From positions 93,250,001 to 93,314,000 of the forward strand of contig NC_086107.1 in NCBI RefSeq assembly GCF_963921235.1: a DNA stretch of 64,000 nt, given 5' to 3'. Origin of the DNA: Mobula hypostoma. Lineage: Eukaryota. Within the stretch, counting starts at the first letter, position 1. Every line of letters begins with the position of its first letter. The translations under genes were made by a program, and so were the position numbers. Shown one piece after another: positions 14,511-60,384 of this stretch. The notes beneath the pieces are model-generated. The model made no database searches. It worked only from the letters and a program-made list of their open reading frames with translations, and was not told the DNA's origin.

Positions 14511-14654
14511 AGACACAAGAGATTCTGCAAACACTGGAAATCCAGAGCAACAAAATGCTGGAGAAATGCAGCAGGTCAGATGGTATCTATGGAGAGGAAT
14601 AAACAGTCAAGACCGGAACCACCAGCTGTTTATACTTGTCCATAGATGCTGCCT
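14511..14654. mobile_element. Penelope terminal-repeat fold-back remnant (continues at 19569-19600)
   Basis: AAAATGCTGGAG..CAGCAGGTCAG..ATCTATGG arm followed by an inverted CCATAGATGCTGCCT arm; split by the 14655-19568 insertion. Confidence 0.7.
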
Positions 14655-20629: not shown

Positions 20630-20803
20630 GCATGAGATGCTGGAGGAACGCAGCAGGTCAGGCAGCTTCCGTGGAGGGGTATAAACAGGGGCCTCAGCCC
20701 AAAATGTCGACTGCTTATTCCCTCCATAGCTGCTGATTAACCTTCTGAGTTCCTCCAGCATTTTGTATGAGTTGCTTTGGATTTCCAGCACCTGCAGAAT
20801 CTT
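20630..20803. mobile_element. Penelope terminal-repeat fold-back remnant
   Basis: ATGCTGGAGGAACGCAG arm and inverted CTGAGTTCCTCCAGCAT arm; a similar fold-back lies at about 22405-22570. Confidence 0.7.
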
Positions 20804-25834: not shown

Positions 25835-27649
25835 AAACGCAAACAACAGGAATTCTGCAGATGCTGGAAATTCAAGCAACACACATCAAAGTTGCTGGTG
25901 AACGCAGCAGGCCAAGCAGCATCTATAGGAAGAGACGCAGTCGACGTTTCAGGCCGAGACCCTTCGTCAGGACTAACTGAAGGAAGAGTGAGTAAGGGAT
26001 TTGAAAGCTGGAGGGGGAGGGGGAGATGCAAAATGATAGGAGAAGACAGGAGGGGGAGGGATGGAGCCGAGAGCTGGACAGGTGATAGGCAGAAGGGGAT
26101 ACGAGAGGATCATGGGACAGGAGGTCCGGGAAGAAAGACGGGGGGGGGTGACCCAGAGGATGGGCAAGAGGTATATTCAGAGGGACAGAGGGAGAAAAAG
26201 GAGAGTGAGAGAAAGAATGTGTGCATAAAAAAGAGTAACAGATGGGGTACGAGGGGGAGGTGGGGCCTAGCGGAAGTTAGAGAAGTCAATGTTCATGCCA
26301 TCAGGTTGGAGGCTACCCATACGGAATATAAGGTGTTGTTCCTCCAACCTGAGTGTGGCTTCATCTTTACAGTAGAGGAGGCCGTGGATAGACATGTCAG
26401 AATGGGAATGGGATGTGGAATTAAAATGTGTGGCCACTGGGAGATCCTGCTTTCTCTGGCGGACAGAGCGTAGATGTTCAGCAAAGCGGTCTCCCAGTCT
26501 GCGTCGGGTCTCACCAATATATAAAAGGCCACATCGGGAGCACCGGACGCAGTATATCACCCCAGTCGACTCACAGGTGAAGTGATGCCTCACCTGGAAG
26601 GACTGTTTGGGGCCCTGAATGGTGGTAAGGGAGGAAGTGTAAGGGCATGTGTAGCACCTGTTCCGCTTACACGGATAAGTGCCAGGAGGGAGATCAGTGG
26701 GGAGGGATGGGGGGGACGAATGGACAAGGGAGTTGTGTAGGGAGCGATCCCTGCGGAATGCAGAGGGGGGGGGAGGGAAAGATATGCTTAGTGGTGGGAT
26801 CCCGTTGGAGGTGGCGTAAGTTACGGAGAATAATATGTTCGACCCGGAGGCTGGTGGGGTGGTAGGTGAGGACCAGGGGAACCCTATTCCTAGTGGGGTG
26901 GTGGGAGGATGGAGTGAGAGCAGATGTACGTGAAATGGGGGAGATGCGTTTAAGAGCAGAGTTGATAGTGGAGGAAGGGAAGCCCTTTTTTTAAAAAATG
27001 AAGACATCTCCCTCATCCTAGAATGAAAAGCCTCATCCTGAGAGCAGATGCGGCGGAGACGGAGGAATTGCGAGAAGGGGATGGCGTTTTTGCAAGAGAC
27101 AGGGTGAGAAGAGGAATAGTCCAGATAGCTGTGAGAGTCAGTAGGCTTATAGTAGACATCAGTGGATAAGCTGTCTCCAGAGACAGAGACAGAAAGATCT
27201 AGAAAGGGGAGGGAGGTGTCGGAAATGGACCAGGTAAACTTGAGGGCAGGGTGAAAGTTGGAGGCAAAGTTAATAAAGTCAACGAGTTCTGCATGCGTGC
27301 AGGAAGCAGCGCCAATGCAGTCATCGATGTAGCGAAGGAAAAGTGGGGGACAGATACCAGAATAGGCATGGAACATAGATTGTTCCACAAACCCAACAAA
27401 AAGGCAGGCATAGCTAGGACCCATACGGGTGCCCATGGCTACACCTTTAGTTTGGAGGAAATGGGAGGAGCAAAAGGAGAAATTATTAAGAGTAAGGACT
27501 AATTCTGCTAGACGGAGCAGAGTGGTGGTAGAGGGGAACTGATTAGGTCTGGAATCCAAAAAGAAGCGTAGAGCTTTGAGACCTTCCTGATGGGGGATGG
27601 AAGTATATAGGGACTGGACATCCATGGTGAAAATAAAGCGGTGGGGGCC
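25835..27649 (-). mobile_element. Young 5'-truncated Penelope-like retroelement (RT plus GIY-YIG endonuclease, 3' terminal repeat)
   Basis: ORF 26267..27742: MDVQSLYTSIP, GVAMGTRMGPSYA, RYIDD, YYKPTD, CNRCYTC-like Zn linker, VIYCVRCSRCGLLYIGET..RFAEH. The first ~31 codons of the ORF are CR1 antisense, not Penelope. Confidence 0.95.
25939..25974 (-). ncRNA. Minimal type I hammerhead ribozyme motif in Penelope terminal repeat
   Basis: Minus strand AGTC-CTGACGA-AGG(GTCTCGG)CCT-GAAA-C-GTC^-GACT: CUGANGA and GAAA core, stem I AGTC/GACT, stem II AGG/CCT, loop-less palindromic ACGT stem III, GUC cleavage triplet. Confidence 0.85.
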
Positions 27650-31415: not shown

Positions 31416-34320
31416 TAATCCTACTTGCCAAGGCCTTCTCATGGTCCCTTCTGGCTCTCCTAATTTCGTTTTTAAGCTCCTTCCTGCTAGCCTTATAATC
31501 CTCTAGATCTCTATCATTACCTAGTTTTTTGAACCTTTCGTAAGCTTTTTAACAGCCTTTCTACTCTATAGTTCCTGTACCCTACCATCCTTTCCCTGTC
31601 TCATTGGAACGTATCTATGCAACACTTGCCACATTTCTGTCATACATTTCCCTGAGAACATCTGTTTCCAATTTATTCTTCCAAGTTCCTGCCCCATAAC
31701 TTCAAACTTCCCCTTACTCGAATTAAATGCTTTCATAACTTGTCTGTTCCTATCCCTTTCCAATGCTATGGTAAAGGAGATAGAATGGTGATCACTATCT
31801 CCAAAATGCTCTTCCACTAAGAGACCTGACACCTGACCAGGTTCATTTCCCAATACCAGATCAAGTACAGCCTCTCCTCTTGTAGGCTTACCTACATATC
31901 GTGTCAGGAAACTCACCTAACAAACTCCACCCTATCTAAACCCTTTGCTCTAGGGAGATACCAATCAATACTTCGGAAATTAAAATCTCCCACCTGTTAT
32001 TATTACACTTTTCCAGAATCTTTCTCCCTATCTGCTCCTCGATGCTCCTGTTATTATTGGGCGGTCTATAAACAACACCCAGTAGAGTTATTGACCCCTT
32101 CCTGTTTCTAACTTCCACCTACAGAGACTCAGTAGACAATCCCTTCATGACTTCCTCCTTTATTGTAGCCGTAACACTATCTCTGATCAGCAGAGCCACG
32201 CATCCACCTGTTTTGCTTCCCTCCCTGTCCTTTCTGAAACACTTTAAGTAGCCATTGCTACCCCTGAGCCATCCAAGTCTCTGTAATGGCCACAACATCA
32301 TAGCTCCAACTACTGATCCACACTCTAAGCTTACCTGTCCTGTTCATGATGTTTCTTGCATTAAAATAGACACATCTCAAACCATCGATTTGGGCGTATC
32401 CTTTCTCTATCACCTGCCTATCCTCCCTCTCGTATTGTCCCCAGGCTTTCTCTATATGTGACCCAACTGCCCCTTCCTCCGTCTCTTCAGTTCAGTTCCT
32501 ACCTCCCAGCAATTCTAGTTTAAGCTCTCCCCAACAGCCTTAGCAAACCTCCCTGCCAGGATATTGGTCCCCCTCGGATTTAAGTGCAACCTGTCCTTTA
32601 TGTACAGGTCACGCCTGTCCCAAAAGAGGTCCCAATGATCCAGAAATCTGAATCCCTGTCCCCTGCTCCAATCCCTCAGCCACGCATTTATCCTCCACCT
32701 CACTCTATACTCACTGTTGTGTGGCACAGGCAGTAATCCTGAGATTACTACCTTTGAGGTCCTGCTTCTCAACTTCCTTCCTAACTCCCTGTAGTCTGCT
32801 TTCAGGACCTCCTCCCTTTTCCTACCTATGTCGTTGGTACCAATATGTACCACGACCTCTGGCTATTCACCTTCCCACTTCAGGATACCATGGATGCGAT
32901 TAGAAACATCCTAGACCCTGACACCTGGGAGGCAAACTACCATCCGTGCTTCTTTCTTGTGTCTACAGAATTGCCTGTCTGACCCCTAAACTGCCTTCTC
33001 CCTTTCCCTACCCTTCTGAGCCAAAGGGCCAGACCCTGTGCCAGAGGCATGGCCACTATTTCTTCCCCCAGGTAGGCCATCCCCCCAACAGTACTCAAAC
33101 AGAATACTTAGATTTCCTGAGATTTTCACGCACAACAGACAAAAAAAGACATCCAGTGAGCAGCAGTTCTGTGAGCGAAATGAGAGAGGTCAGAGGAGAA
33201 TGGTCAGACTGGTTCAAGCTGACAGGAAGGTGACAGTAACTCAAATAGCCACATATACCGAAGAGCATCTCTGAATGCACAATACGCCAAACCTTGAAGT
33301 GGATGGGCTACAGCAGCAGAAGACCATGAACTTATGGCCTGAGATAACTTTATTAGGTGCAAGAAGTATCTGAAGTGACCACTGACTGTAAGTCAACAAA
33401 ATGTAACATAAGACAAAAAGGCAGAAGACCCTTCAGCCCTTCATAGCTGCTTCACCATTCAACAACATGCACAAAATGCTGGAGGAACTCAGCAGACCAG
33501 GCAGCATCTATGGCAAAACGTACAGCCAACGTTTTGGGCTAAAACCCTTTGGCAGGCTTCACTATTCAGTGAGAGTGTGGTTAAGGTTTGGTCAGTTTCC
33601 CTGATTAATCCAGTATGGATTCCCCTAACATGGGAACATGTACTAATCTTATCCCTAAGTTCTCCAACTGATGTAAAAAAATTCCAAAGATTCGCTTATT
33701 TCTGTGTGAAGAAATTTTCCTCATCTTCTTCCTTGTGCTAAACACCACACTACCGCACTAGAGCTACTGCATCAGTTAAAAATGCTTTGGGGATACCCTG
33801 AGGTTCCAAAAGGCATGATAAAAATGCAAAAACTTGCTCCCTGCTACTAGAAAAGATTCTGAAGCAATCACTCAGCACAACTGTCATTTCCCAAATGACC
33901 CAAGCTGTGACTCTTATCATTGTGTTCCTTGGAACAATCATCTGCCTACCAAAGTCTGGCTTTCAGAATGCCTGAGCTTATTTCTGGCTGTTTGTGATCC
34001 AATGTGACTACTTATCTCTTCTCACACTCCTTTTAGTAATCTTCAATTACTCAACCACGGCATTGGTAGACAGGAAGAATGAATTAGCAAGCCCTGAGCA
34101 AACAAAGGAAGGCTGGAGATCAGAGGAATGGTTTCTCCCACAGAACAGAGCCTAATTGAGTGTAGAGTGAATCTTGTGGTCAGCTGAGCTGAATACTGGG
34201 TGTACATGAGGTTCAAGCCCCACGCCCGATCCTGGAACTAGGAAGAGGGCAGAGTCACAAAGACGAAACAGTTGACGATGCATGTTGATATAAAAAACTC
34301 ATTAAAGATTCTTTCAAGTG

Positions 34321-37510: not shown

Positions 37511-37625
37511 TCTCTATTAGCCCCATGAGTAAACCTGATTGCTCCCTCATACCTCAATATTTAATAGGCTTCAGTGAGATACCCCCTCAATCTTCTAAAC
37601 TCCAGTGAGTACAGGCCTGCAGGGT

Positions 37626-37789
<164 letters not shown>

Positions 37790-38949
37790 ACGCGTATACT
37801 TGAGGAGGTAATTGTGTGTGACGACTCTTTTTGCTGAGCAGCTCACAGAGTGCCCCTGCCCACCGCTGGGAAGGGCTGCTGTTTGGCATCGTACTCCAGG
37901 TTTGTCTCATGGTATGAGAAGGATTTGAATCTGTGTTGGGCAAAGTCAGAAAGGTCAAAAACTAAAGATCACAGAGCAAAGCAGAAGTGTCTCAGGTGAA
38001 GGGCGGCTGAGCAGCGAGTGGTTGGAGTCTGGGCTGCACCCTAGGCGAGCTGAAGGAGCAGTCTGTCAGGTACGGTCACCATGGACAAAAGGGAGATAGA
38101 TGTACAAGTACCAGCAAGGAAAGAATTGGCAGGGTGTGGGCAGTGGGTGTTGGAGAGGGATGAGCAGGAATGGTCTTGACTGGAGACACTACAGGCTCAA
38201 TGGGCTGTGACCAGCTGGTGATCCATCTCCACCCTCTCAGGAAAACCACCCAGCTGGATAATAATTTCACTCACATCTGCTGGGAGCTGCACCTCCTGCC
38301 AGTTGAAGCAATTTCTCCACATTTGTTCTCACAAAATCCTTTACAATTTTAATGACTAAAGATTAAAAATTTAACATTAAAGATTGGCTTTATCTGTCAC
38401 ATGTACACACAGTGTTATGTTTTGTCACTTCAGACATTAAAACTAATTCAAAAGAAGACATACAGGTTAACTTTAACTTTGAGTTTATTTTAAGCGAAGC
38501 GCGCACGTATCGCGTGGTAGCGTGATGACGTATGTAATTAATCTATTTGTATCTATTTAATATTTAAACAAACAAGAATGCTTAATCAAGCAATATATGT
38601 ATATACAAGATTACTCATATTACTGAAATATTAAATACACAACATTCCTCCCTGCTTAGCTAGTAACTCCAACTCAACAGGGGAAGCATCTCAATTATAT
38701 ACACAGTAGACTGTATAATGCAGCATAGTCAATTTTAAGTCGTCCCATTCAGGACTAAGATGGAATCGCTGTGGCGGATTTCTTACTCTTGTGGGATAAT
38801 GTTTTTCCTGACGGGGTGGGGGGTGGTCACTCTGTTTGGCAGGTGAGACTTGTGGCTGCGAAACAATCCCCAGCTCTGGGGCCGCCTCCATGGAGATTGT
38901 AGAAGTTGACTCTGAGACCGCAGGAAGTGGTTCTGACAGCTCTAGACAC

Positions 38950-39451
38950 CTTTCTTCTTCTAGTTTGTGCAACTTGATTGTGGGAAGGTGCATTTAGCTC
39001 ACAGAAGTATTCTCTTATTAATCCTTTGCTCCCTTTACGATCTGATCTCTCTTCTTGGTTTCTTCATCCACAATATCATCTGACAAATCCTCTGTTTTCG
39101 TATCTCTGTTGATTCCTTTCTTTTTGGTCTTCCATTCATCCGAGCAGCTTTTTGTCTCCCACTTGTAGTTCATGCAATAACCTTAATACACACAGAGTAG
39201 ATTCTGGCTTTGTATATTCACAAAAGCTGAATGCTTGCAACTTTCCTGAAGCTTCGTGAACTCTCTTCCAGCTTAAAACGAAGCCGCATTTCACAAGCAA
39301 CTGCCTGATTAATATATCAGAAGCTTTCGCAGATATTTTGGCTGTAAAAATTGTTGTAGTCGCACCACTGACTTCATTACTTTCATGATTCCTCTGAGCA
39401 GCTTGGTCCAATATGCTTTCCGACAAGAGGCACAGAGGCTGGCACCAACAA
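38950..39451 (-). pseudogene. RBM25: Processed fragment of RNA-binding motif protein 25 (RRM and downstream charged region), frameshifted
   Basis: Reads LLVPASVPLVGKHIGP / SGATTTIFTAKISAKASDILIRQLLVKCGFVLSWKRVHEASGKLQAFSFCEYTKPESTLCVLRLLHELQVGDKKLL / DEWKTKKKG..DEETKKRDQIVKGA / GLIREYFCELNAPS. This matches RBM25 as I recall it (GPTTTVFVGNISEKASDMLIRQLLAKCGLVLSWKRVQGASGKLQAFGFCEYKEPESTLRALRLLHDLQIGEKKLL..DEWKAKKK..DEETKRRDQMIKGAIEVLIREYSSELNAPS). Three frameshifting deletions. Confidence 0.92.
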
Positions 39452-39753
39452 CTGCTTGTCTTACGCTGAGCAATGGTTCATGGTGGTTCAACACAGCTAC
39501 AGTTGTGGCATCATCCAGTATCTTTCTTCATTCACTTGTATTTGACTCTGTTACAGGGGATGTGGCATGCAAATGGCAGAAAGATCTCCAATCAAGTTAT
39601 AGTTGTCTCAGTTTTTACCGCATTCAAGCTCAATGTGGCTTGTTAGTTGTTGTATTTCACAGTCACGAATATTATTCCCACAGGAGTTAACTTTTCTCCA
39701 GTATAAGCTCTTAGTTGGGTATCTGGAGTCTACAGTTCAGTGTCTTTGAAACG

Positions 39754-40601
39754 TCACAGTGGGAGAAACTAGGAAAGATGGCACCAGAGGTTTTTGTAGA
39801 CCTTCCAGATTGTTAATGAAACAGCTTATTCTTCCTTTCTCGTGCTTTTACTTTCTTTTCGAGGTGGCTGGGGTTCCGTTGGAGTCCATGATCTCCAGTT
39901 ACTGTTCAAGCTGTGGTTCTCCACAAGCGGAGGGTTTTCGCACCAGTCGTGCGGCCTGGCGTTTCGATATCTCCATGAGCGGGCCTGGAAGGCATGCACT
40001 TTCGATGGGTGGTCCCGCAGATGACCCGGTTCCTTGCCAATTTCACTGACTAAAGAAGATCATCAGGGCAGCAGTCAGTGTGCGGTGCTGTCGAAAGAAG
40101 GCATCTATAGCTGAGCGATCTCTCTCTCTCTCTCTCGATGGAGGGTAAGAGTCTGTTGGTCTCTGAGTCAGGAGGCTTGGCACAGTGTCGCAGAAGATTG
40201 CAACTTTAGAACAGTGAGCTGCTGGTCTCCTGTGCTCGTTGTTGAAGGAGTAATCTCTCTCTCCCTCGATGGTGAGAGAAGCCTGTTTGAGAGACTGAAG
40301 TGTTGGGTTATGGACTACAGTTTTTAATGGACTAGATCAAGGTCTATTTGGGGCTTTTGCTTGCATTGTGGGGGTGGGGGTGCTTCTCATTGTGCAAATG
40401 TGTGGAAGAGGAGGGGGAGGATCAATATTTCTGCTGATGCTTATGTGTGAGGGGGGAGATGGTCTTTGGTTTTCTGATATTACTCTCAATCATTCTTTGG
40501 GGTTTCTTGTTTCATGGATGTCTCTGTGAAGAGTAAGAATTTCAGGTTTTATACCACATACATCCTCTGATATTAAATTGAAACATTTGAACCATTTGAA
40601 C
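39754..40601 (+). mobile_element. Non-LTR retroelement 3' segment inserted in the Gypsy protease
   Basis: Splits VIPLNEF / FKDTEL; ends in (CATTTGAAC)n-type tail. Confidence 0.65.
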
Positions 40602-40825
40602 CAAACTCATTTAGTGGAATGACTGAAACAGTCGAATCAGTGTCCAATTCCATTTTAATTAATTTGCCGTTCACTTCTGGTGTAAGCCATATTGCTTGTC
40701 TACTGTTAATTTTCACACTGTGAACCTCGAGGCTACACAGTCCTGTGTCACTCTCGTCACTATCAGATTTTTCATCAACAGCGTACAGATCAATGCTCTT
40801 TTTTGAAATTGCAATTTGACTTTTT

Positions 40826-41090
40826 ACAAACAAGAGTAAATCTGCAGATGCTGGAAAACCAAGCACCACACACAAAATGCTGGAGGAACTCAGCAGGCCA
40901 AGCTGCATGTATGGAAGAGAGCACATTCGACATTTCTGGCTAAGACCCTTTGGCAGGACTGGAGAAGAAAAGCTGAGGAGTAGATTTAGAAGGTGGGGGG
41001 AGGGGAGAGAGAAACACAAGGTGAAACCTGAAGGGAAAGGGATGAAGTAAAGAACTGGGAAGTTGAGTGGTGAAAGAGATACTGGCCTGA
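40826..41090 (-). mobile_element. Penelope terminal-repeat fragment inserted between Gypsy gag and protease
   Basis: Homologous to 25835-26100; decayed hammerhead core at about 40925-40960. Confidence 0.8.
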
Positions 41091-43230
41091 CCTTTTAGCT
41101 ACTTCTCTCCCTGTGCAGTCCATTTATTCCTGTCTGGCCAACATGCTCTTTGTATGTGTGCTACTTTGTGGCACTTTCTGCAGGTTTCGGCTTTAAACCT
41201 GCATTGGTCTGGTGTATGTGAACCCCTGCCACAACTGTAACACAATTTGTTTGGCCAGACTGGTTTCTGTTTAGATGTTGGAATTTTGCTCATGCTCACT
41301 TTCACAGCTGCAACTCAACTGTGTCCGGGCCTGTGGCTTCTATTGAAACAGTGATGTCAACTGCTCTTTTGAATGTGCTTCAGTTAGAAGCTGTTTCTGC
41401 GTGCTTTCTTGCAAGATTCAACGAACTGAATGATCTCTCAATGCATCATTAAGCTCATTACTGAATTGACAATGCTTAGCCAATCTCTTCAATTCAGTCA
41501 CATATGCTGAAATGCACTCCCCCTCTTTTTGATTCTGCTTATGAAACCTAAAACGTTCTGCAGTCAACAATGGCTTCACTTCTAAATGTTCCAACATTAC
41601 TTTAACAATACCAGCAAAGCTCATTTCTACTGGTTTGGTTGAAGCAGTCAAACTTCAAAGCAAGCTGTGTGCCCTTAAGCTCAATGCACTTAGAAAAATT
41701 GCCACTTACTTCTTATTGGCTGTTACATTTGCTTCAAAATACTATTCCAATAGCTCAGTGTACATGAGCCAATTACTCTTGTGTAATCAAACTTGTCAAT
41801 CTTTCCGATGTAGCCAGCCATTGCTGATTTTTTAAAAGATTATTATCACCCGGTAATCACTCTTTATTGTCCCTCTATTCTTCCGTTTATAATCTTTTTT
41901 TACTCCACGTCTCTGCACGTGCTGGGCTGCATCTCTTTACTAGCCATGCTTTGTTTAGTTTGAATGTCTCACGGTGCTTGAACAGGTCAGTAGCCATCCC
42001 GGGATTGTCTTAAAAATACCTCATCTCCAATGATATGTTCTGTAACTTTTAAACATTAAGCTAATTCAAGAAAGTCATGGAAGTCTGACATGTGAGTCTA
42101 ACTTAGTGACTACTTTAAGTGAGGTGCACATGTATCACATAATAGTGTAATGACATATGCAATTATGTATTTTTTAATATAATCCATAATAAATTACTTA
42201 AATAAACAAGAATCTTAATCAAACAAAATATATATGTGCTGGGGGCAGCCCACAAGTGTCGCCATGCTTCAAGTTCCCACAACATGCTAACACTGACCTG
42301 TACATCAAACCCTAACAAAGCATGCCTACAATCCATATGAACGCTGGTCCAGTCAAAATGGCGCCTGCGTACAACATTCCTTCAGCTGACATTTCCTGGA
42401 TAAACCACAAAACCATTTGCTTCACTCCTTTTACATCTGTTTTTCATCATGAATGTGCTTCTGGAACGGCTCGAGCTTGCAGTTTCCAGTTTGGAGATCA
42501 ATTCAGCAATTGAGCACTTTGCTGTCTCTGAGAAGATTCCAGGAAGCAGCAAGAGCAAAGCTCGAGGCAAAGAAACTACAAGACAGGGCGCAAACTGTTG
42601 TTCAACTCCATTTCACCGATTAAAACTTCCATAATAAAATAATACATAATGTATAATAAAAACTATAAATTACAATAAGAAATATATTAAAAATTAAATT
42701 AAACTAGCAATGAAAAAAATAGTGAGGTAGTGTACATGGGTTCATTGTCCATTCAGAAATCTAATGCCAGGGGGGGAGAAACTGTTCCTAAAATGCTGAG
42801 TGTGTGCTTTCAGGATACTGTACCTCCTCCTTGATGGTAGTAATAAGAAGAGAGCATGTCCTGGGTGATGGGGGTCCTTAATGATGGATGCCGCCTTTTT
42901 GAGGCATCATCATCTGAAGATGTCCTCAATGCTGGGGAAGCATATAGGCTGGGTTATTGGTTATATTCTAGGGCTGTGTCTGAGGGGTTATTGGATGATA
43001 GGGCAGTCAAGGGCTATGGGGAACTGGCCTTTTTTCTGAAGCAACCTTACTGAAGATAAGACCATAAGAGCTAGCAGCAGGAGTCAGCTACCTGGCCTGT
43101 TAAGCCTGCTCCGCCATTCAATATGATCATGGCTGAACTGGCCATAGATTCAGCTCCAGCTACCCACCTTTTCGCCATAAACCTTAATTCCCCTGCTGTG
43201 CAAAAATCTTTCTAACTGGGTCTTAAATAT

Positions 43231-52498: not shown

Positions 52499-53499
52499 TG
52501 GACTAGGAACCCGAGGTCCCTCTGCAACATCGACACTGTTAAGGGTCCTGCCATTAACAGCACCTTGTCTTTTACATTTGATCTCCTAAACTGCAACACT
52601 CTGCATTTGGTCAGGTTAAACTCCATCTGCCATTGTTCTGCCCAAAACTACAAGTCGTCTACATCCCACTGTATCCTTTGCCAGTCCTCAGTGGTTAGAT
52701 AGACACAATGTGGCAGATGGAGGTTAATCCTGAGAAGTGCAGCTAACTGCAGGATAACTCTGCAGGAGACTGCACTATCCCTGGTAATGTGCAATGGAGA
52801 TATATACACACATCTCATAAGGCAGCAGGATAGGCAGATTAGGATTCAAGACTCAAGATTATTTATCACGCGCACTTCGTAATGTTTGGGTGGTGGGGTG
52901 CAGATACATTTCTACCAAAGGAGATGCAAGGCACTATTCCTTCTGTCAGCCTGCAGACCACCCTTGGGCAAGATGTAGCATCTGCCTAGCCCCCTGATCA
53001 GGATCATGTGAAGCCATGGGAACAGATAGTGAATGATCGAATGAGCAGCTGGTACATATCACAAGTCGCTGACACCAGGCAGACAATCTCTGAAGAATAT
53101 TGATATGGCTGGGGTCACCTGTCTTGTAAAGACCCCATCCAGAAGAAGGCAATGCAAATTCACTTCTGTTGATAAATTTGCCATGAACAGTCATGGAAGG
53201 ACCATGATCGTCTGCGTCATACGAAATGGCACATAATGAATGAGCAACCATCGAAATAGACAATGAAGAGCTTCATTTGTATTGACAACCAACATAAATG
53301 AGGGTGTGCTGAGGACAGCCCACAAGTGTCGCCACACATTCCAGCTGCAACGTAACCTGCCTACAATGCTCGGCAGAACAACACAGGACACAACAAACAG
53401 CAAAACAAGCCCCATGCCTCCCTGCCCCGCACACATGCACACACACACACACACACACACAGAGTCTTTTAACCCCAGGACAGGATATTATATAGTATC

Positions 53500-58104: not shown

Positions 58105-58266
58105 AACACACATCAAAGTTGCTGGTGAACGCAGCAGGCCAGGCAGCATCTGTAGGAAGAGATGCAGTCGACGTTTCAGGCCGAGACCCTTCGTCAGGAC
58201 TGCTGCGTTCACCAGCAACTTTGATGTGTGTTGCTTGAATTTCCAGCATCTGCAGAATTCCTGTTG
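58105..58266. mobile_element. 162-bp Penelope-derived fold-back mini-element
   Basis: 13-bp TSD GGAGCGTAAAGGT at 58092-58104 and 58267-58279; perfect 33-bp inverted repeat 58105-58137 / 58200-58232; nearly identical to 25845-25974. Confidence 0.93.
58166..58201 (-). ncRNA. Minimal hammerhead ribozyme motif (identical to 25939-25974)
   Basis: AGTC-CTGACGA-AGG(GTCTCGG)CCT-GAAA-C-GTC-GACT on the minus strand. Confidence 0.85.
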
Positions 58267-59311: not shown

Positions 59312-59452
59312 TCTTTTTTCTCCAGTCCTGCTGAAGGGTCTTAGCCTGAAACATCGACTGTGCTCTTCCATAGATGCTGCCTAGCCTGCTGAGTTCCTCC
59401 AGCATTTTGTGTGTTACTTGGATTTCCAGCATCTGCAGATTTTCTCTTGTTT
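59312..59452 (+). mobile_element. Penelope terminal-repeat fragment with mutated hammerhead (59324-59359)
   Basis: AGTC-CTGCTGA-AGG(GTCTTAG)CCT-GAAA-C-ATC-GACT; interrupts Gypsy pol after ETQAMN. Confidence 0.8.
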
Positions 59453-60384
59453 GACTATGAATTGCTGAAGTGCTATAGGTTAGCTTCATCCCAGTCCCCA
59501 GTCGGTGCAAGGTTCTTTGTCAAAAAGAAAGATGGGGTCCTCGTCCCTGCATCGACTACCATGGATCAACATTAAGAACTGTTATCTTCTCCCTTTGATG
59601 GATAGTGCATTCAAAACACTCTGTGGGGCCCAGGTCTTCACCAAACTGGATTTATGGAATGCATACAATCTGACTCGCATCCACCAGGGAGATGAGTGGA
59701 AGATGGTGTTCTTCCACTCACTATCCGATATGAATACTATGTGATGCCTTTCAGAATTTCTAACAGTCCCATCATTTTCCGAGCCATCATCAGTGAGCTC
59801 CTCCAGAACATGCTACACAGGTATGTGTTTGTCTCTCTCGATGACATTCTCATCTTCTCCAAAGACCTCCAGGACCATGTCTGTCATGTCCATTTAGTCC
59901 TCCAGCATCTCTTTGAAAACCATCTGTACTACAATTTGGATAAATTCCAGCTCCATACCCCGGTTCTTTCCTTCCTGGAAGATGACCTTTCACCCCAAGG
60001 CATAACCATGGACCCAGAGAAAGTGCACACCATCGTCGAATGGCCCCAGCTGCTTTCCCTGAAACAGCTACTGTACTTCCGGAACATCTCCAACTTTTCA
60101 TCAGAAACTACAGCCAAACTGCCGCTCCTCTCACCTCCCTCACCAAGTTGACTTCCTCGTAGATAACTTGATCTGCTGCCACAGACCACGCTTTTGAGGA
60201 GCTCAAGAGAAGCTTCACCACTGCTTTCATTCTCTGTCATCTGATCTTTTGAGGTAGAGGCGGATGCATCTAACATGGGGTCTGGGGCCATCCTCTCCCA
60301 GCGAGGGCTGAACAGGGAACTTGTGTCTTCTTCTCACACAAGTTCAACTCTACACAGCACCTTTATGGAGTAGGGGACAGGGAG

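Follow-up and report, generated by a model that had tools for sequence, protein, structure and literature searches.

A decayed long terminal repeat retrotransposon in Mobula hypostoma with spliced RBM25 sequence in place of its pol region: a probable member of an old, amplified non-autonomous family

A stretch of 64,000 nucleotides (nt) from Mobula hypostoma (NCBI RefSeq assembly GCF_963921235.1, contig NC_086107.1, positions 93,250,001 to 93,314,000 of the forward strand), referred to here as the window and numbered from its first letter, contains the remains of a long terminal repeat (LTR) retrotransposon in which a piece of the gene for the splicing factor RBM25 stands in place of most of pol. 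We conclude that this element is probably an old and decayed copy of a non-autonomous Ty3/Gypsy-like LTR family that captured RBM25 by LTR-mediated retroposition and was then amplified in trans. In this family the region encoding reverse transcriptase (RT), RNase H and integrase would have been replaced by about 570 bases from a spliced host RBM25 RNA. The captured piece would open with 33 or more bases from the end of the intron preceding the VLVP exon, run on through at least three exons that include the RRM, and end in the KKKKEKK codons. The features of the element are as follows, in the order in which it is read.

42225-38413, minus strand: the whole element, bounded by two decayed LTRs.
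42031-42225, minus strand: 5' LTR core, 195 nt, TG..CA, 0 CpG, from its alignment to the 3' LTR; probably 5'-truncated.
42012-42029, minus strand: stretch resembling a primer-binding site, starting with TGG 1 base after the 5' LTR, read from the sequence.
41099-41839, minus strand: gag remains in three frames, with a core open reading frame (ORF) at 41654-41418 and a CCHC knuckle ORF at 41314-41099.
40603-40800, minus strand: N-terminal part of the protease-like remains, with DTDS at 40644-40633, read from the translation.
39498-39813, minus strand: C-terminal part of the protease-like remains and linker, ending ..ILDDATTV, from the translation; about 32 nt are missing at 39610/39611.
39483-39497, minus strand: 15-nt filler at the 5' joint, with the first copy of the direct repeat GCTGT-N-GAACCAC, from a pattern count.
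39452-39484, minus strand: RBM25-locus sequence ahead of the exon, probably an intron end, closing with CAG, from tblastn to residues 4-14 (TMN.C..KQ) of the RBM25-like model P0001.
38951-39451, minus strand: RBM25 exonic sequence from LLVP.. to ..TRRRK, RRM included, from tblastn, protein search and alignment.
38951-38958, minus strand: purine run AGAAGAAA at the 3' joint, common to RBM25-side and tail-side contigs, from contig end points.
38658-38950, minus strand: 3' internal tail, carrying the second direct-repeat copy at 38940-38927 and common to many contigs without the RBM25 part.
38645-38657, minus strand: purine run AAGCAGGGAGGAA resembling a polypurine tract, 52 nt ahead of the aligned 3' LTR core, read from the sequence.
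38413-38592, minus strand: 3' LTR core, 180 nt, TG..CA, 8 CpG, from pairwise alignment; it may reach up to 38644.

The first-pass annotation of this stretch had described an RBM25 fragment in the element's orientation and collinear with the protein, and tblastn bore this out. Residues 4-34 and 37-211 of P0001, a 220-residue RBM25-like model (isoform X1) from the shark Heptranchias perlo, aligned to window positions 39484-38920 (E 3e-44), in the orientation of the element and without change of order. The 113-residue ORF at 39477-39136 matched 124 of 231 candidate proteins at E<=0.001, the named ones listed being RBM25 or RRM proteins, and its top match was P0001 at 73% identity. The RRM_1 domain fell below the cut-off in this decayed ORF (E 0.0036) and scored E 2.5e-10 in P0001. 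The RBM25-derived part amounts to about 535 bases in the window copy, which has frameshifts and lacks 33 nt (11 RBM25 codons) at 39142. Some 45 bp between protease and RBM25 that had earlier been left unassigned turned out to consist of the 15-nt filler (39497-39483) and 33 nt of RBM25-locus sequence (39484-39452).

The borders of the RBM25 exons were inferred from the proteins of other vertebrates and from genomic ORFs. The ORFs P0124-P0126 of genomic contigs hold one exon, which begins with AFGF, ends with ..NG and is flanked by unrelated sequence, three truncated RBM25 models terminate directly after NG, and RBM25 isoforms of gar and paddlefish carry a five-residue insert precisely at KLQ|AFGF. 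The window crosses both KLQ|AFGF (39235|39234) and NG|D (39105|39104) without any gap. At least two introns are thus missing, so the source was a spliced RNA, and the piece is not a single exon with intronic flanks, in keeping with the earlier observation that it has no intron-sized gap.

The 5' end of the piece tells a different story from its exons. Just ahead of VLVP, the N-terminal extension of P0001 (..CFTQ) diverges from all 30 of the other aligned RBM25 proteins; window positions 39484-39452 fit this extension, and CAG directly precedes the exon. Judged from these letters, the 33 nt are probably the end of an intron with its CAG acceptor, which would mean that the source was not a fully mature mRNA. 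The original description of the piece as an mRNA fragment is therefore right as to splicing, with at least two junctions crossed, but not as to maturity. At its other end the piece stops within the purine-rich RKKKK codons, about 18 nt short of the end of the exon. A poly(A) and a target-site duplication of its own had been named in the first-pass annotation as the marks of an insertion driven by a long interspersed nuclear element (LINE); no poly(A) is present in the window sequence, the piece ends inside coding sequence, and a LINE-type insertion is set aside as improbable.

P0001 itself seems to start and finish in intron read-through, with ..CFTQ before VLVP and VFIC.. after KKEKKEE, and is probably a partial RBM25 model on a 27.6-kb contig. 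It was considered as a possible copy of the chimeric family and rejected, as it runs on through KKKKEKKEE past the 3' joint of the family and ends intron-like. A search for chimeric proteins of similar length gave 6 matches among 16 candidates, all of them pieces of ordinary RBM25 genes. The insert of the gar and paddlefish isoforms (P0113, P0106), which reads GKNKT or GKNRT and lies within the RRM at KLQ|AFGF, suggests a conserved alternative donor site.

The remainder of the internal region has lost most of pol. An hmmscan of the six frames of 38413-42236, in which each stop was replaced by X, matched no RT, RNase H or integrase family at E<=0.1, and the reported absence of RT, RNase H and the integrase core is confirmed. 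The gag assignment held only in part. Its core ORF (41654-41418) matched Pfam PNMA (E 0.009), the CCHC knuckle ORF (41314-41099) matched Pfam zf-CCHC_5 (E 0.005), and Retrotrans_gag was found on 29 of the 30 named ESM Atlas neighbours of the core ORF, with a best score of 0.94, but both Pfam matches are weaker than the family cut-offs. A word-index protein search with the gag ORF gave 0 matches among 369 candidates. No protease family was matched in Pfam by the two protease-like pieces or in the six-frame scan, and we take them to be putative protease from their translation (DTDS and the pattern downstream of it). The ORF of the 3' tail, previously labelled as the C-terminal end of integrase, showed no Pfam homology and gave 1 match (E 8.8e-6) among 1.84 billion representative proteins; this sole match scans as a patchwork of unrelated weak Pfam families, so that the integrase-tail label remains unproven.

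The two LTR cores are identical at 126 of 178 aligned bases (71%; Kimura two-parameter distance 0.38), as against a mean of 46% and a maximum of 54% in 30 shuffles of one LTR, and a MAFFT alignment over slightly wider spans gave a mean column identity of 78%. The LTR pair is genuine and old, and the two repeats that had been described as flanking the element are not unrelated insertions. ARAGORN found 0 tRNA genes within the 64-kb window as a partner for the TGG stretch next to the 5' LTR. The loss of CpG is one-sided: the 3' LTR core has 8 (observed/expected 1.85), the 5' core has 0, and all 8 sites are TG or CA in the 5' LTR. This contrast could mean that the two LTRs were methylated differently in the past, or that the 3' LTR underwent gene conversion.

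No further copies of the element were found inside the window. When the stretch 38350-42300 was compared with public sequencing runs, the share of its sampled words that was found was 0.71-0.76 in organism A, 0.28-0.30 in organism B and 0.08-0.11 in seven more. Contigs were placed on 38600-39830 (1,231 bases) at 80% likeness from four runs of three organisms, X1 (A), X7 (B), X9 (C) and X21 (A). X1, X7 and X9 come from three studies; X21 is RNA by guess, and no word-sharing run is recorded as RNA. The contig pieces placed numbered 16,981 in X1, 15,618 in X7, 12,928 in X9 and 682 in X21; of the 30 bins, those of X1 and X7 covered every one and those of X9 and X21 covered 29 each. More than half of the listed places at which most contigs differ from the window (27 of 40) lie in the RBM25-derived part, where the other letter is carried by at least 95 X1 contigs at 18 of the 27 places and by at least 21 at 26 of them (a count of 128 standing for at least 128).

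Both joints between RBM25 and the element are bridged by contigs that are about 17% diverged from the window copy. The 5' joint is spanned by X1 record 8 (39406-39611) and X7 record 23 (39403-39611), and the 3' joint by X21 record 9 (38861-39141) and X9 record 24 (38877-39140), so that all four runs and all three organisms contribute, with identities to the window of about 82-83%. At the places belonging to the 5' joint, contigs of X1, X7, X21 and X9 numbered 9, 13, 2 and 7 at 39488 and 21, 17, 2 and 12 at 39469. That many diverged contigs have the same joints means that the chimera has been copied many times, and they support the earlier proposal of a non-autonomous, gene-carrying element amplified in trans. 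Other copies keep 32-39 letters at 39141/39143, where the window lacks 33 (4, 7, 2 and 6 contigs), and other contigs keep 32 letters between 39610 and 39611, with loose ends at 39611 in 135, 123 and 114 contigs. Since other copies keep these 33 and 32 letters, the window copy is a derived, decayed member of the family and not its origin.

In X1 the summed word depth of the RBM25 bins is 2,270-41,134, where a single listed contig has 7-16; depth does not measure copy number, and this ratio suggests about a thousand copies as an order of magnitude only. The 682 contigs of X21, two of which have the 33 letters missing in the window, are no demonstration that the family is transcribed. For organism B, none of the pieces listed spans the stretch at the orthologous locus.

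The ends of the contigs also define the joints. Contigs that have the 3' tail and no RBM25 depart at 38958 (327, 280, 31 and 272 contigs in the four runs), tail-side pieces stop at 38959-38961 and RBM25-side pieces stop at 38951-38955. The resulting 8-nt overlap, AGAAGAAA, is possibly a microhomology at which the two sequences were joined. The 15-nt filler of the 5' joint is not part of the protease linker and cannot clearly be assigned to RBM25. The motif it carries, GCTGT-N(1-3)-GAACCAC, was picked post hoc and occurs 2 times in the 64 kb against 0.03 expected, the second copy (38940-38927) lying 11 nt past the 3' joint. The direct repeat looks like a target duplication. Because the 18 nt before the second motif are common to contigs without RBM25, and because there is no poly(A), a short additional jump of the RT onto the tail is tentatively preferred as the source of the filler. 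Fillers of 2-26 bp are reported at such fusion points in the sections of Tan et al. (2016, PMC5131818) available to us.

We infer the template switches, the mobilisation in trans and the copy number in the following way. The chimera most likely formed inside a virus-like particle, where the RT would have slipped off the element RNA within the 3' tail, using a short stretch of matching purines, gone on along RBM25 RNA toward the RBM25 5' end and rejoined the element RNA just past the protease; template switching is thus the likely route of capture. Since it retained LTRs, leader, gag and 3' tail, enzymes of autonomous relatives could copy the chimera; its copies, at a rough estimate a thousand, would have become very numerous in three or more related organisms. 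Two sources would fit the intron bases of the 5' end, transduction from an intronic element and an RNA that started within the intron or had kept it, and they are inseparable here.

Several observations weigh against this reconstruction. The matches behind the Gypsy assignment are weak, and the exon junctions come from the proteins of other vertebrates and not from the gene of this species. At the 5' joint, depth dips about 10- to 100-fold (in X1 to 1,181 at 39440-39481, against 11,899 and 15,875 beside it), as it does comparably at 38684-38767 and 39356-39397, where the window is locally diverged, and the contigs shown to carry the 5' joint number no more than tens in each run. The longest of the listed pieces mostly break off at the 3' joint, some on its RBM25 side and some on its tail side. 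Past 38951, X1 record 2 and X9 record 25, both RBM25-side contigs, run on in sequence unlike the window (319 and 104 letters), which shows that the RBM25 piece also occurs in other arrangements. Contig depth gives no copy number, and dispersal to different loci is read from sequence divergence only. A simple two-switch model does not predict the direct repeat of 14-15 nt that brackets the RBM25 piece together with 18 nt of tail. Finally, both switch points are placed from the chimera and its contigs and not from the sequence of an autonomous donor.

Acute transforming retroviruses have a 5' joint in a host intron, downstream introns spliced out and a 3' joint made by non-homologous switching, and they are replication-defective and dependent on a helper. 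Unlike these oncogene-transducing retroviruses, the RBM25 chimera is not an infectious virus, and there is no sign of expression or advantage of the captured piece. A transduction in their style would begin with an element lying in the same orientation in the RBM25 intron before the VLVP exon, and would proceed by a deletion or a read-through transcript that linked its protease-linker region to the intron, by splicing of the introns downstream, and by one switch at the purine run that gave back the 3' tail and LTR. We regard this course as unlikely, although the piece does open with 33 nt resembling an intron end that adjoins the exon and continues with spliced exons, and there is a short purine overlap at the 3' joint. 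A 5' joint of this kind is the classic pattern of oncogene capture in the model of Swain and Coffin, cited in the available part of Tan et al. (2016, PMC5131818). However, the 15 nt of filler at the 5' joint look like the tail of the element itself, not like the intron, and an RNA starting in the intron, or incompletely spliced, explains the intron bases equally well.

The direct repeat would find a ready explanation if a processed RBM25 fragment had entered an element consisting of gag, protease and tail, either at a staggered break or through a LINE enzyme, with a target-site duplication of 14-15 nt and later amplification. Two occurrences of GCTGT-N(1-3)-GAACCAC, against the 0.03 expected, do bracket the piece (39497-39483 and 38940-38927), but the repeat pattern was chosen post hoc, the piece has no poly(A) and it ends inside coding sequence. 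Furthermore, the 18 nt between the end of RBM25 and the second repeat are present in 272-327 RBM25-less contigs per DNA run, which leave at 38958, so these 18 nt belong to the element and not to an insert. Such an insertion is improbable.

An origin at the level of DNA, in which double-strand-break repair lost pol, took up an RBM25 cDNA fragment as filler and left a repaired copy that later served as master, is highly improbable. End joining, too, typically leaves a short overlap, as at the 3' joint, and a short filler, as at the 5' joint, but this course requires an unrelated source of RBM25 cDNA and a precise replacement in the right orientation, and it explains the data no better than switching within the particle, which yields this layout in animals. 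There is almost no chance that the element is a unique accident, with contigs derived only from the RBM25 gene and from unrelated Gypsy copies: most of the long pieces listed do end close to the 3' joint or right at it, coming from both sides, but four listed contigs from four runs bridge the joints at about 82-83% identity, the 5'-joint places occur in 9-21 X1 contigs, and the at least 95 contigs at 18 of the 27 listed RBM25 places are far above the yield of one gene.

Capture of host RNA by LTR retrotransposons, which we favour for the RBM25 chimera, has precedents. LTR-mediated retrocopies of metazoans, in the sections of Tan et al. (2016, Genome Res, PMC5131818) available to us, are intron-less, truncated copies of host genes that replace part of the element's ORFs; their fusion points have short microsimilarity or filler, they have no poly(A), and they can act as non-autonomous elements. 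They are described there as young and present at one or a few insertion sites, with two fly retrocopies at more than one. Like them, the RBM25 retrocopy lies between two LTRs, replaces an internal part of the element and lacks parental introns and poly(A). Unlike them, the chimera is old, with LTRs 71% alike, is represented by thousands of contig pieces in three organisms, and has a probable intron start.

Two further systems offer a comparison. Bs1 of maize, according to the part of a review available to us (PMC13317346), is a non-autonomous LTR retroelement without pol and with internal fragments of three host genes; the RBM25 chimera likewise has lost pol and has a host-gene fragment in its internal region, but its host is an animal and the fragment comes from a single host gene. 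In CrocERV31, as far as the consulted text of Chong et al. (2014, PMC4299795) goes, a captured nectin3 mRNA replaced env, and there are six insertions, with intact ORFs under purifying selection, whereas in the RBM25 chimera pol was replaced, the window copy has decayed and copies are far more numerous. The mechanism is thus of a known kind, LTR-mediated retroposition, and what stands out is the scale, which is unusual for animals, and the age. Searches of the literature for RBM25 together with LTR retrotransposon, Gypsy, retrocopy and cartilaginous fishes returned no description; Repbase and Dfam lay outside this search and may list the family under a neutral name. The RBM25-bearing family appears to be undescribed.

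Captures of host RNA by LTR retrotransposons of animals are known mostly as single young loci, and the RBM25 case appears to be a later stage, in which the chimera appears to have stayed mobile and to have spread a fragment of an essential splicing factor, with its RRM, through the genomes of at least three related organisms. This would explain a possible abundance of 'RBM25-like' matches in such genomes and calls for caution in gene annotation. As a dated record, the element also documents an RBM25 RNA that started inside an intron or had kept one. It offers a natural system for studying how an element without pol competes for the machinery of its partner, and it allows one to ask whether the silencing of a gene-bearing transposon spills onto the parent gene. 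As a long shot, in young copies the RBM25 piece may have been in frame with gag and protease and have given a host RRM that aided packaging of the RNA by the partner, hence the thousand or so copies in several species, with small RNAs that silenced the family also matching RBM25 mRNA. If that were true, transposon defence would be tied to a core splicing factor.

Other features lie within and around the element.

40827-41066, no strand assigned: nested insertion resembling a short interspersed nuclear element (SINE), between gag and protease, from repeat copies in the window.
59314-59453, 25840-26085, 33470-33556, 20689-20798, 58197-58266 and 14515-14578: partial copies of this nested SINE-like repeat.
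39814-40602, no strand assigned: insertion of about 789 nt splitting the protease, with approximate borders; the protease can be read down to 40603 and again from 39813.
42235-42330, minus strand: SINE-like flank adjoining the 5' LTR, from repeat matches elsewhere in the window.
38376-38412, minus strand: SINE-like flank adjoining the 3' LTR, from repeat matches elsewhere in the window.

The two nested insertions (41066-40827 and 40602-39814) are additions to the anatomy first reported. The SINE-like one is the only part of the element that has other copies in the window, the six partial ones listed, at 74-88% identity. For the 789-nt insertion no second copy was found in the window and no Pfam match in any frame; the contig depth of the family collapses past about 39775-39817, at its edge.

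The flank on the side of the 5' LTR is 93% identical to 53305-53334 over 42235-42264, and its positions 42236-42259 align to 595-618. On the side of the 3' LTR, 38376-38407 is 87.5% identical to 529-560, with further copies in the window. The two flanks belong to one SINE-like family and agree in orientation and order. The view that the element split a single SINE is consistent with this collinear fit, but no target-site duplication of 4-6 bp was found in the flanks just outside the LTRs, and the interrupted SINE has lost about 28-33 nt at the insertion site: in the full copy at 529-618 the matched parts lie about 34 nt apart, at the element 6 nt. A deletion of about 70 nt across the edge of the 5' LTR would account for the lost SINE sequence, for the missing duplication and for the position of the purine run 52 nt from the 3' LTR core. 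The motif TGTTGTG at 42290 was considered as the true start of the 5' LTR and rejected, as it sits within the flanking SINE. A long (GT)n microsatellite (37624-37795) lies just beyond the element.

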